A stretch of 64,000 bases of DNA from Eledone cirrhosa (Eukaryota), in contig OZ024753.1 of assembly GCA_964016885.1 (NCBI GenBank), positions 40,548,001 to 40,612,000 of the forward strand, written 5' to 3'. Both the position numbers and the translations under genes were made by a program. The notes under the pieces were generated by a model that worked only from the letters and a program-made list of their open reading frames with translations, was not told the DNA's origin and did not search any database. Below, one piece after another: positions 14,180 through 52,070 of the stretch (position 1 is the stretch's first letter; the number at the start of each line of letters is the position of its first letter).

Positions 14180-14330
14180 GGTACGTTATTCCGGGTTGAA
14201 TCGGAGGTAACCACAGTAATTAAGGTACTCAATACATTGCAGAGTATAAAAGAAAAGTTTTAATATAGATGAGATTCCTGATGATTTCTAAAGAATGAAA
14301 CAGTTCTAGTCCTGTAGAATCTCATCTATA
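14180..14330. mobile_element. Family B fold-back element
   Basis: Same sequence as 23255-23398, 48895-49086 and 51865-52070; bounded by (TA)n. Confidence 0.85.
14273..14321 (+). ncRNA. Type I hammerhead ribozyme motif (family B)
   Basis: GAUUC-CUGAUGA-u UUCU aa AGAA u-GAA-ACAG uucuaguc CUGU-A|GAAUC, GUA triplet. Confidence 0.78.
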
Positions 14331-14816
14331 TATATATATATATATATATATATATATATATATATATATATATATATATATATATATATACGAACAGACA
14401 AATGTATAAATAAATTTATAAAAAATTAGATAAAAAATGAAGAAAGAATGAGACAGATAAATAAATGAATAAATATGTATCGCTGATGTTCAAAATTCCT
14501 ATCACTCCAATCTTATGATTGTTGTTGTTGTTGTTGTTGTTGATCTTGCTTTCGTTTTTTTTCCTCATTTAGTTTTTCCTATTTTCTTGTTTATAATATC
14601 GACACAAAAATTCATATCAAGCGGTTTACATATGCTGTCAATTTTAGTTTTTCATGTATATATTTTCTTCTAATTTATTAATATTTTCTGTCAAATATTT
14701 ATTCATATATTCCATCACTTGTTTTACGTATTTATTTATTTATTCAATTATTTAATTAATAAAGTTAATTAATTAATTATTTATTACTCTCTTTTGTATT
14801 TTAATTTATGACAAAA

Positions 14817-14953
14817 AGTTACGGCCTTTTATGGTCTGAGTTCAAATCCCACCGAGGTTAACTTTGCCTTTCATCCTTACGGGGTCAATAAAATAAAGTA
14901 CCAGTAATACACTGGGAATAATTGCTGGCCTTGTGCCTAGTAGAAACAATTAT
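14817..14953 (+). mobile_element. tRNA-derived SINE (Meta-domain-like core)
   Basis: B box GAGTTCAAATCC at 14838, core GCCTTTCATCCTTACGGGGTC-ATAAAATAAAGTACCAG, (ATT)n-type tail. Confidence 0.88.
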
Positions 14954-15009
14954 TTCTACCATAGATTCAAGCTATTACTTTATTAGCAGTGTATAGTATT
15001 TTATATTGA

Positions 15010-15305
15010 ACCAGTAGATCAGGGTTAGTTAAAGTTACGATGAAAAGCCAAGGTGACATCGGTAGAATTTGAACTCAGAACAGATCACAGAGTAACCCAA
15101 CGCCGAAATATCCGACGCTCCAACGATTCTGCCAATCTCTTGTCACGCGAATCGTATTATAGATCTTATTGTTGATATTCAATATTCTCTAAAATGCTCG
15201 GTTAACTTTGCTTTCATCCTTTCGGGGTCGATAAAATAAAGTACCAGTAACACACTGGGGTAGATTTATTCAATGTTCCCGCCCCCCAAAGCAGAAACTA
15301 TTATT
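15010..15305. mobile_element. Two further SINE copies (about 15010-15135 minus, 15199-15305 plus)
   Basis: Match to the SINE core and to A/B box remnants. Confidence 0.7.
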
Positions 15306-16129
15306 GATATTCATTAATACATAGATGTATTTTTCTTATTTAATTCCATGTTCTCTCTGGCGATGGTGACTCATTCAGATTTTTTTAATATTTAGTTTTC
15401 TATTGTGTAGTGTATTCTACTTTATATACGTTTGCCTGTTATACAGATTTTGAGCAAACTTTCCCTGCAATATACGTTTTAATCATGTCATTTCCCTGAG
15501 ATAAATAATTCATTTTGACATCTAGACTATTTCCAAAGTTTTTAAATAAAACTTTAATGGCGAAGGAAGAAGGTTTGACATACACTCATGTGGCATCTAT
15601 TTAATTATTTATTGTTGCTGTAAAGAGCTTCAGATAGATATATGATAGGTATATGATAGAAATATTGTTCATTAGTACCAAGATGTTGTATTGTGTTATC
15701 TATATATTTTCTTGATATACTCAAAAACGAAAGTTGGAGTTCATGTTCGAATCACGTATCGGTTCAATTTATGTTAAAGAAGATAAATCATTTATTTTCA
15801 TTCATTCTATTCCTTTAAAAATATCAAAATCTTTTATCAAAGTCTATAGGATATTGTAAAAGAACTAAAAGCTAAAGGAACTGTTTGTTGACAGTCTCCC
15901 ATCCGATACTTATTATATATATACATATAGAAGAAATAGGGACTGTGTAGTTGCTGGATAAAGTGTATTTATAAATAAGAGGAAATCACGAACGAGGGAT
16001 AATATAGTCATTAAACGGGTAAGTGCTGAATCTCGATCAAGTCTCATAACTTAGCCATTAAATGAATACCTAAACTCTACTTCAGTATTGAGTACATTTT
16101 GTCACGTCCGTCAATAATACATTGATATA

Positions 16130-16404
16130 TCTATCTATCTAAGGCGGGTAAAATTCCCGAGATCCATGGACGAGTTCTCTCCAGCGGTCTCTGTCCCTCA
16201 TTATCGCTGCCATATCCTGCATCTCCAACAGACCAGAGTCTGTCCTTAGGGCATCAACATATGTTAACCTTGGTCTTCCTCTTCTAGTGTGTCCATGTAG
16301 GGGCTCCCAAAGGAGCACTGAGTGCAATGTCAACTCTGGATGTCGGTGAGCATGTCCAGCCAACCTCAGTCTCCTCTGTGTCACTTTTGAGCTGACTTTT
16401 GGGA
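16130..16404 (-). mobile_element. RTE-clade LINE 3' end with a (TAGA)n tail
   Basis: ORF QRRLRLAGHAHRHP...RRGRPRLTYVDALRTD...RDRWRELVH; same family as 6990-7598. Confidence 0.9.
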
Positions 16405-16422
16405 TATATATATATATATATA

Positions 16423-16569
16423 ATCAAATAAAACAAGGGCGAGTGGTAACGCCTTCATTTCGTTTATTGGTTGGTGACGCGCGTTTCACCACCGACCAGC
16501 TCAGTGTTCGATCTGTATCGATCTAGCCTGACTCTGTAATCCACGGCTCCTCAGACTCTTTTAGTGGGT
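16423..16569 (-). mobile_element. Penelope-like fragment with a hammerhead motif and extended helix II
   Basis: Minus strand: CTGAGGA (16548-16554), GCCG...TGGT, GAAACGCGCGTC (16476-16487), then AATAAA. (TA)n on both sides; helix I is weak. Confidence 0.65.
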
Positions 16570-49405: not shown

Positions 49406-49493
49406 CACACTCACACTCACACTCACACACACACTAATGGTTGCATTCTTTAAGAGTATGTCAATATTTATTTATAAAACTGATCTATATTAT

Positions 49494-49557
49494 ATTTTAT
49501 CTGATGAAAGCACACCATAATTTAACTTGATGTCCTTGAAATATGTATAATGAAATA
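49494..49557 (+). ncRNA. Hammerhead motif related to family C
   Basis: AUUUUAU-CUGAUGA (49501)-AAG...CUU-GAAAUAUGUAUA|AUGAAAU. Confidence 0.72.
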
Positions 49558-49704
49558 AATATGGTTTTATAAATATAGTTTCCATTTGTTAATATCGTAT
49601 TTTTACTCCAAATATTTGTTGAGTGCTTTATATCAGTTATAAAAATATTTGCTTGTTGTATCCCAACAATTTAAGTTAGAACTTTTACACATATATATAT
49701 ATAT

Positions 49705-49792
49705 AGGGCGGGTAAAATTCCAGAGATTCATGGACGAGTTATCTCCAGCGGTCTCTGTCCCTCATCATCGCTGTCCTGTCCCGCGTCTCCAA
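49705..49792 (-). mobile_element. Extreme 3' fragment of the RTE LINE family
   Basis: Matches 16143-16228. Confidence 0.85.
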
Positions 49793-50446
49793 TATTAGTA
49801 GGAATAACTGGTGTTGCACAGGTTGAGATCTACCTATATCCCTGCAATAGATATGTGCTCACTAATTATTTATATCGTAAATGAAACTAGTAAATGGTAT
49901 ATAACTAATTCATGAATACTAAATAAAAACATGCAATTATATGAAAGTGAATTTGCTTTAAACTATTCTTTATTTAAGAAACATATTTTCATCTTTAGCC
50001 GTGGATGGAAACGCAATGCCTATGACCTCAAATCCAACTCTTTACTGAATGGAACAGGTCGGGTGGTGGTCATACGATTTCCACATAAGTAAGAAACGGC
50101 ATTGTTTGAACTTAGAAAGCAATGAGACGTGAGAAAACCAAAAGGCATCTCGTTTGGCACTGACCTATTAGAATGCATAGGAAAAGTTTCCTAATCATTA
50201 AATCTATAGACCAGGCAATATATTTACTTTCCACTACACTACACACAAAGAGAGTTTCATATATGATCACTTATACGCATCCAGGGTAAACCATTACAAA
50301 CATATTCATATATAGGTAGACACAGACAAGTATTAGATGTCCCCAGTAACCTTTTCTCTATGCTTATATTTTCCTGTTCTTAGAAGGGATAAGTGATTGG
50401 AAAATAAACTTCTTCGCCAAATCAACACGAGTATTGATATATTACT

Positions 50447-51545
50447 AATTGGCAGTATCGATAGAGGGTCGGATATGCTTTCCAGCATAGTTACGTCCCT
50501 TTCCAATCTGAGTTCAATTCCCGCCGAGGTTAACTTAGCCTTTCATCCTTACGGGGTCGATAAAATAAAGTACCAGTAATGTACTGGATAATTGCTGGCC
50601 TTGTGCCAAAAAAAAAGAAACAATTATTACTATTTTTATAATGATTTCTTGGTTTTGCGCTTCAATAAAAAAAATATTATATGGATTGCCAGAATCGAGG
50701 GACCGTCTGACACCATGCTTTGCAGCATAGAGTTGCGAACCTTTACGTTCGGAGTTCGTGCCGAGGTTAACTTTGCCTTTCATCCTTACGTGGTCGATAA
50801 AATAAAGTACCAGTCACGCACTGGGTCGATTTAATCGACTTTCTCCTCCCCTATAACTGCTGGCCTTGTGCCTATATAAGACACTATTATTATTATTATT
50901 ATGCTTTGCAGCATAGAGTTACGTCCCTTTATGATCTGAGTTCAAATCCTGACGAGGTTAACTTTGCCTTTCATCCTTACGGGGTCGATAAAATAAAGTA
51001 CCAGTAATGTACTGGGTAGTTGCTGGCCTTGTGCCTAAAATAGAAACAATTATTATTATTATTATTGTCCTAAGGGCGGGGGATTGGCAGTATCGGTAGA
51101 GGGTCGGGTGCCATGCTGGGTTGGGGGATTGGCAGTATCGGTAGAGGGTCAGACACCATGGTAGGACGGTGGATTGGCAGTATCGGTAGAGGGTCGGACG
51201 CCATGCTGGGTTGGGGGATTGGCAGTATCGGTAGAGGGTCAGACACCATGGTAGGACGGTGGATTGGCAGTATCGGTAGAGGGTCGGACGCCATGCTGGG
51301 TTGGGGGATTGGCAGTATCGGTAGAGGGTCAGACACCATGGTAGGACGGTGGATTGGCAGTATCGGTAGAGGGTCGGACGCCATGCTTTGACGCATAGAG
51401 TTACGGCCCTTGCCATTCTGAGTTCAAATCCCGCCAAGGTTAAATTTGCCTCTCATCCTTACGGGATCGATAAAATAAAGTACCAGTAATGCACTGAGTA
51501 ATTGCTGGCCTTGTGCCAAAAGTAGAAACAATTATTATTATTGTT
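50447..51545 (+). mobile_element. Head-to-tail array of four SINEs
   Basis: Copies at about 50447-50628, 50684-50900, 50901-51066 and 51072-51545. Confidence 0.92.
51081..51390 (+). repeat. Seven 45-bp SINE head (A-box) units in an alternating A/B pattern
   Basis: GGATTGGCAGTATCGGTAGAGGGTC at 51081, 51126, 51171, 51216, 51261, 51306 and 51351. Confidence 0.95.
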
Positions 51546-51864
51546 CTTGTTGTTGTTGTTCTGATTAGTGCTATATTTTCTCAACAGATGGTGATAAGAA
51601 AAATCTAAAAAAAAATATTCAATAAATGTTCTTATCTCTCTATGTTCTGTATGTCACATCTCCCCATTACACTGTTCAAACATACACAGATGCATAAATA
51701 CATATTTACATGCATCCATATATATATATATATATATATGCACACATATACACATGCATACATATATACATACATACCTTTATATATATACATGCATTAC
51801 ATACATATATATACACTCATATATAAATACGCACATGCATATATATATATATATATATATATAT

Positions 51865-52070
51865 ACGGTATTCCGGGTTGAATCGGAGGTAACCACAGTA
51901 AGTAAGGTACTCAATACATTGCAGAGTATAAAAGTTTTAATATAGATGAGATTCTACAGGACTAGAACTGTTTCATTCTTTAGAAATCATCAAGAATCGC
52001 TTTCCTGATGATTTCCTGATGATTTCTAAAGAATGAAACAGTTCTAGTCCTGTAGAATCTCATCTATATA
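51865..52070. mobile_element. Family B fold-back element with hammerhead motifs on both strands
   Basis: Inverted arms. CTGATGA is duplicated at 52005 and 52016; the minus copy reads gattc-TTGATGA. Confidence 0.85.

Follow-up and report, generated by a model that had tools for sequence, protein, structure and literature searches.

A hammerhead-bearing repeat at four loci

The stretch of DNA analyzed here, hereafter the window, comprises 64,000 nucleotides of Eledone cirrhosa contig OZ024753.1 (positions 40,548,001 to 40,612,000 of the forward strand), and is AT-rich, microsatellite-laden eukaryotic sequence. At four loci it carries a hammerhead-bearing repeat, which we call family B, in the form of six hammerhead-shaped arms and one tail-only arm, with head-to-head pairs at three of the four loci. 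The core pattern of the family matches six times in the window, compared with no match in 100 shuffles. An earlier note on this DNA had described compensatory changes in helix I of these motifs as internal evidence of selection on a ribozyme fold. The arms are as follows, the hammerhead-shaped ones being referred to by the position and strand in brackets.

14180..14277, minus strand: tail-only arm, running from exactly the base that follows the predicted GUA cut site into (TA)n
14272..14330, plus strand (14273+): short hammerhead arm; helix I 5′ strand at 14272-14277, core at 14278-14316, 3′ strand at 14317-14322
23150..23396, plus strand (23263+): single 5′-truncated copy flanked by two (TA)n runs, its upstream sequence native; the 5′ limit, 23150, is inferred from the (TA)n run
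48900..49021, minus strand (49021-): long arm of a head-to-head pair; core at 48984-49021 degenerate, with GAAU and a broken helix III 5′ strand; helix I 5′ strand absent
49019..49086, plus strand (49024+): short arm of the same pair, with native upstream sequence; AGCCTC at 49024-49029 and GAAGCT at 49069-49074
51865..51998, minus strand (51995-): long arm of a second head-to-head pair; GATTC at 51998-51994, core to 51955, tail running into (TA)n
52001..52069, plus strand (52016+): short arm of the same pair; helix I down to 3 pairs

A complete arm consists, in order, of the helix I 5′ strand, CUGAUGA, U, helix II, U, GAAA, helix III, the GUA site, the helix I 3′ strand and the tail, which is the layout of a type I hammerhead with a 6-bp helix I. 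Helix II has 3 bp closed by U.U and a loop of 4 nt (8 nt in 49021-), and helix III has 4 bp, ACAG/CUGU, around UUCUAGUC, with a CUAG palindrome in its loop; the 16-mer formed by helix III and loop 3 has a folding energy of -1.4 kcal/mol alone and -12.8 as a dimer. With the three helices placed in this way around the core and helix I left open, 88% of cells are paired, against 36-50% after a slide of 1-3 columns, the structure having been drawn from the same sequences. The core boxes CUGANGA and GAAA are intact, together with the UH cut site, in 14273+, 49024+ and 52016+, and core lesions are found in the other three of the six arms. When stems are counted as well, each window arm bears a lesion of the core (GAAU in 23263+ and 49021-, C3U in 51995-) or of the stem (49024+ and 52016+), or has a stem made by a junction (14273+). 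The core of 23263+, at 23269-23307, carries GAAU in place of GAAA, whereas GAAA is the family norm, A being present at 23291 in 99% of the depth of a public run, X1, described below. The box of 51995- reads UUGAUGA (C3U without G8A), and in 52016+ an 11-nt stretch of the CUGAUGA box is duplicated at 52001-52022.

The family has two 3′ ends, both running into (TA)n, one at CTATA about 14-20 nt past the cut site and one at CG about 90 nt past it. The terminus of 14273+ is the internal CTATA site, joined to (TA)n, and 23263+ has the long tail, reaching CG at 23395-23396. In loose ends of the public data, the short (CTATA) and long (CG) ends are likewise joined to (TA)n.

The hammerhead families of Rfam (clan CL00010) did not reach their gathering score, the best match being HH9 at 14266-14334 with 15.7 bits against 52. 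There was no hammerhead match at 23230-23400, nor any hammerhead among the 150 of 261 matches listed for the whole window; the listed matches were of the microRNA type, falling on simple repeats and palindromes, and one snoRNA, all below gathering score. An alternative register with a GUC cut, taken from the HH9 alignment, was rejected because it leaves 5 surplus bases before helix I.

Helix I pairing in the window and in public data

The helix I pairs quoted in the earlier note all lie where it placed them: GATTC 14273-14277 with GAATC 14317-14321, GGCTTC 23263-23268 with GAAGCC 23308-23313, AGCCTC with GAAGCT in 49024+ (one C.A mismatch), and the minus-strand GATTC with GAATC in 51995-. In these four arms helix I pairing is indeed kept, but two arms that went unmentioned break it, since 49021- has no core-adjacent pairs and 52016+ has 3. 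The description of helix III and the cut site as invariant holds for the GUA site and the CUGU strand, which are identical in all six arms, and fails for ACAG, which is intact in four of them; 23263+ reads UCAG (with core GAAU) and 49021- reads UAAA.

One of the quoted pairings has a separate origin. The 14273 pairing extends over 15 perfect pairs because 14180-14277, the tail-only arm, repeats the tail of the element in inverted orientation (2 substitutions in 90 compared with the 51954 tail), and it is the start of this arm that supplies the plus-strand “GAUUC.” Such a mirrored strand pairs by construction, and 14273 is therefore no independent observation. That the tail-only arm starts exactly at the cut site (14277) fits predicted cleavage and helix I microhomology equally well. 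Across the six window arms, two-sided change occurs at two of the six helix I pairs, a count met in 240 of 500 shuffles, and the covariation score was equalled or beaten by 109 of 500 shuffles; neither result is significant. RNAalifold run on the window arms did not predict helix I and gave two-sided change at 0 of 11 pairs. Given the shuffles, the mirror product and the omitted arms, the window by itself provides no evidence of selection. Selection on the fold in the source elements, which the earlier note had also proposed, draws its support from reads and contigs outside the window.

For these outside data, four of 23 listed public runs were placed on 23190-23398, the one arm with a non-mirror flank: X1 and X21 from organism A, X5 from organism B and X8 from organism E. 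X21 consists of 150-nt reads and the others of contigs, those of X5 covering the reference without the helix I 5′ strand. The family is present in 9864 contigs of X1, 6437 reads of X21, 221 contigs of X5 and 6 contigs of X8, and all variant figures given here are taken from among 40 listed of 109 variants. Parts of the stretch 51860-52075 are present in 17 of the 23 sequencing runs listed for it, and there is no RNA run carrying it among those 23. A scan of viral contigs for further family B loci gave no match, and 20 metagenome-contig matches were rejected as chance, the family tail being absent in all of them and the BLAST matches being only 15-16 nt long.

The results show three native helix I forms in the family, GGCUUC/GAAGCC, AGCUUC/GAAGCU and AGAUUC/GAAUCU, with two double changes, C-G to A-U at pair 4 and G-C to A-U at pair 6. 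The sequence upstream of 23263, multi-copy in reads and contigs from 23190 onward, is covered by dozens of contigs and by one contig of organism E, and GGCUUC is therefore native. At pair 6, the 5′ side changes by G23263A (66% in X1, 76% in X21) and the 3′ side by C23313T (53% and 48%). X8 record 17 carries both changes and thus an intact 6-bp AGCUUC/GAAGCU, with seven of its seven differences accounted for. The 49024+ arm of the window is this same form plus one extra lesion: its outer helix I pair is A-U, it agrees with the common variants C23261T, G23263A and C23313T, and it has one C.A lesion.

At pair 4, the corresponding changes are C23265A (7% in X1, 46% in X21) and G23311T (3% and 23%). 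A total of 962 X21 reads are clipped before 23266. The consensus of their loose ends (agreement 0.51) has CCCAGA as its final letters, and AGAUUC is therefore native as the partner of GAAUCU. In X8, record 18 has GATTC and GAATC, linked by matching loose-end lengths, with a non-mirror upstream sequence. In records 17 and 18, two contigs of a second organism, both helix I strands are thus present in phase. Two organisms show both forms of pair 4 beside an otherwise intact core-adjacent stem, and the paired positions shift in the same direction in X1 and X21. Loop II takes several letters at 23281-23283, and the only stem variant listed in helices II and III is at 23291.

In a rough neutral simulation, two-sided change without a broken pair arose with a probability of 0.008-0.034 per subfamily split at divergences of 0.10-0.25; the tails of the subfamilies differ at 9-13 of 84-89 positions. 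As the two splits were picked after the fact, the simulation is moderate support and not proof, and we regard the covariation as real at the level of the family, on two events chosen afterward and not on an R-scape result. An explanation by chance hitch-hiking would hold that, of the many subfamily differences, two coincide by accident with facing positions in a stem without present role. It suits the nonsignificant window-only tests, the small number of events (two) and the presence, in all six window arms, of damage to the core or the stem or of a stem made by a junction, but it sits poorly with a simulated chance of about 0.01-0.03 per split and with the two organisms in which both pair-4 forms leave the stem intact beside the core, and we consider it highly improbable.

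Pairing could also be kept without selection on cleavage if, during reverse transcription or replication, short template switches or fold-back used one strand of helix I as the template for the other. Template switching is described as making compensatory changes in one step (PMC8794818), and C-G to A-U has no G-U intermediate; moreover, 14273, whose 5′ strand is a mirror of the tail, is a direct case, and head-to-head joints are common (three of four loci, with 8 opposite-strand joints listed in reads and contigs). Copying of this kind leaves unexplained, however, the conserved core boxes beside a variable loop II. In addition, the native upstream of AGAUUC, seen in loose ends, can be aligned with that of GGCUUC and contains no tail mirror, the pairing ends at 5-6 bp in non-mirror arms, and a change made by a switch must still spread through a subfamily. 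On this evidence template switching appears unlikely as the source of the native forms. It does call for caution, in that elements forming inverted repeats can show apparent stem covariation that is an artefact of mirroring, to be filtered before R-scape is run.

We propose that the four loci are probably truncated, mostly mutated hammerhead-shaped ends of a high-copy repeat, likely a Penelope-like element (PLE), and that they differ in helix I through descent from at least three subfamilies, in the sources of which selection likely maintained the pairing of the stem. Besides the window-level tests, several observations weigh against this proposal. The G10.1-C11.1 pair is absent, with U.U in all six arms; the hammerhead is never the minimum-energy structure, the forced fold being 3.4-5.6 kcal/mol worse in the 4 arms tested; and the folding z-scores of the arms range from -1.85 to +0.97. 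In X8 record 18 the sixth pair is mismatched and one of five differences is unlisted. The frequencies on the two strands are unequal (46% vs 23% and 76% vs 48%) and unlinked, a mismatch for which the clipping of 946 reads of the GAAUC subfamily at 23310 is a partial cause. A search for reverse transcriptase (RT) and GIY-YIG domains with Pfam, on 64 of 183 filtered frames, reached no curated cut-off and gave no RT or GIY-YIG match, and a 30-aa frame just upstream of the 23263 copy had no match by ESM Atlas or phmmer. The short frame at 23151-23234 may bear a faint likeness to the end of PLE GIY-YIG proteins; searches with it gave no match. Finally, the 8 opposite-strand joints listed in reads and contigs are scattered, and none falls exactly on helix I.

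Probable relation to Penelope-like elements and proposed origin of the joints

PLEs are described as showing strong 5′ truncation, an adjoining inverted truncated copy, an optional tail and (TA)n targets (PMC8557442), and their hammerheads as truncated motifs that mostly stand singly and in some cases are paired on opposite strands, with a palindromic loop 3, weak dimeric cleavage and families rich in compensatory changes (PMC4209133; further background in PMC544870 and PMC6765202). Family B has an inverted 5′-truncated copy adjoining the element at three of four loci, and opposite-strand joints in reads and contigs as well; it also has an optional tail of about 70 nt, giving the two 3′ ends, and (TA)n insertion. 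Membership in the PLEs is thus likely as judged from architecture alone. Partial tandems forming pseudo-long terminal repeats (pLTRs) are absent from the window, and head-to-tail joints occur in 57 of 6437 X21 reads, with the sequence beyond the joint lying outside the reads.

In comparison with the PLE type I hammerheads of Cervera and de la Pena 2014 (PMC4209133), where G10.1-C11.1 is reported as highly conserved, family B has U.U, a short 3-bp helix II and a real 4-bp helix III with an 8-nt loop, with no link to an open reading frame (ORF) found. The Hydra and Naiad clades (Craig et al. 2021, PMC8557442) share with it (TA)n insertion, the adjoining inverted 5′-truncated copy and the optional tail. 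Hydra elements are reported there to have canonical hammerheads and Naiads to be without them, and the two clades are defined by protein motifs, none of which was found for family B; their tail measures 30-40 nt, against about 70 in family B. PAc Poseidon of Anolis (Frangieh et al. 2024, PMC11167929) likewise has two 3′ ends past the hammerhead and AT-rich targets, the two ends being tied to two RT start sites. Its ribozyme is weak alone and requires protein, a likeness that for family B rests on the predicted fold, and its ORF begins within stem II, whereas family B, as read from its sequence, has no such open frame. The pDo500 satellite hammerhead of Dolichopoda (PMC2837043) also displays compensatory changes in stem I, taken there as constraint, although pDo500 is a tandem satellite known from 198 sequences and family B consists of dispersed truncated copies with two events. 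In natural U10.1-U11.1 hammerheads (Perreault et al. 2011, PMC3088659), stem II opens with U.U as in family B, and this mismatch is reported to support more cleavage than other mispairs; it is a rare variant in that work and is found here in six of six arms of a high-copy family.

Among the X21 reads, 57 of 6437, in three of the rows listed for joints, pass from one hammerhead's end into the start of a second with a period of 77-78 nt (window 23256-23310), and at least six spacer variants occur among the 8 X21 rows listed. No head-to-tail joint is among those listed for the contig runs X1, X5 and X8. Such pairs could stem from the 5′ junction of a partial tandem in a PLE, or from a retrozyme-like array of very small size, 150-nt reads fitting both. 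Family B might accordingly be a non-autonomous retrozyme, or an element resembling a short interspersed nuclear element (SINE), that spreads via a small RNA released by self-cleavage, and not the severed end of an autonomous PLE. The 64 of 183 filtered frames scanned and the frame upstream of 23263 revealed no coding frame, read depth falls steeply upstream of 23260, the head-to-tail pairs keep their short period with several spacer variants, and animal retrozymes have been proposed to derive from PLE pLTRs (10.64898/2026.07.22.740005), all of which would suit a retrozyme. Yet direct tandems are found at none of the four window loci and in just the 57 X21 reads, with none listed in contig runs. 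Many contigs, and a second organism as well, carry 70 nt or more of the sequence upstream of 23263, the pattern expected if a longer element had lost its 5′ part. The tested retrozyme monomers are printed as 200-400 nt (PMC7229834), and the non-LTR retrozyme trait of tandem 200-400 nt monomers with a canonical type I hammerhead is not seen in family B. We therefore hold a retrozyme or SINE-like origin to be quite unlikely and retain the truncated PLE end as the probable identity. A more specific idea, which we judge improbable, is that one subfamily carries two U10.1·U11.1 hammerheads head-to-tail at a fixed 77-78 nt, that double cleavage of the dimer would free a 78-nt RNA, barely larger than the hammerhead itself and able to circularize, and that helix I would also serve as an annealing patch for inverted PLE insertions. 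If true, a circle of 78 nt would lower the size limit of retrozyme-like RNAs to far under the 200-400 nt monomers.

For the truncated PLE end, we suggest the following course of events, modeled on PLE biology. A source element would be transcribed, and an RT/GIY-YIG protein would nick (TA)n; reverse transcription would start at the short or the long 3′ site, and most products would be truncated near the hammerhead. Two complementary DNAs, or a template jump, would then be joined head-to-head via a few complementary bases, yielding inverted pairs. At 14273 the joining bases would be helix I itself, through 6 nt common to the mirrored tail and the native upstream; elsewhere they would be CAG at 49022, where the junction of the pair holds a CAG microhomology, and a slipped 11-nt duplication at 52001. 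The general rule that inverted joints always fall on ribozyme stems was rejected, as it fits 14273 and does not fit 49022 or 52000, and the listed read joints are scattered. A narrow search found no literature joining Penelope-like inverted copies, microhomology and the hammerhead. Cleavage at GUA would be weak and would likely proceed in a dimer or with the aid of a protein. The monomer would be a poor ribozyme; the forced fold lies 3.4-5.6 kcal/mol above the minimum in the 4 arms tested, and the folding energy of the helix III segment goes from -1.4 kcal/mol by itself to -12.8 in a dimer. Only a few transcribed sources, and not the window copies, would be under selection on helix I.

Compensatory changes in Penelope hammerheads and the U10.1·U11.1 core have both been published already, and the finding is mostly ordinary: family B is one more repeat family with a conserved hammerhead. 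Lunse et al. reportedly described dimeric PLE hammerhead variants in 2017, which may already cover the U.U variant. Family B itself may already be listed in alignments that supplement PMC4209133 and PMC8557442. Two questions that PMC8557442 calls open, what PLE hammerheads do and how the inverted and tandem PLE structures arise, could conveniently be studied in this high-copy family, which combines a non-consensus core with three natural forms of helix I and a natural tandem of 78 nt.

Other repeats in the window

A second repeat family, also head-to-head in (TA)n, lies at 6140-6339, 19985-20164, 22979-23110, 24350-24426, 26861-27037 and 54443-54560. It has GAAAC, a palindromic helix III loop and a GUC site, and none of its arms extends to a CUGANGA box, all junctions lying at or downstream of the presumed helix II. 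An 11-nt tail motif, GTATTGAGTAC, occurs at 11 places, four in family B, five in the second family and the remaining two at 2210 and 16085, against a chance expectation of 0.03; it could be a conserved protein-binding or RT-start signal. Duplications of 11 nt by slippage are found at the inversion centre in two families, at 52001-52022 and at about 6262-6283. At 20190-20342 and 24159-24299 a third hammerhead-like family is linked through CCC to a short antisense arm from the second family, which breaks off about 1 base away from its predicted cut site; the joint possibly results from a template jump between families.

Two further palindromic elements with minimal hammerhead-like cores are located at 13860-14050 and 49101-49335; the arms of the latter are 94% alike around a 7-nt loop, and it lies inside the (TA)n that adjoins the 49024 arm at its short end. 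Further CUGANGA...GAAA motifs, each single and close to (TA)n, are present at 5141+, 16725-, 16554- and 49501+ and probably belong to additional families of this type. The palindromes at 45633-45803 and 59153-59300, near-perfect and 150-170 nt long, resemble microRNAs in Rfam, below threshold. The window also contains fragments of putative RTE-like long interspersed nuclear elements (7086-7598, 9200-9970, 16138-16423 and 47594-48535); a homolog search with one RTE-like fragment gave 16 unnamed proteins. A dispersed multi-copy SINE-like repeat is found at 14817-14961, 20453-20644, 50448-51560, 53123-53235 and 61222-61321.

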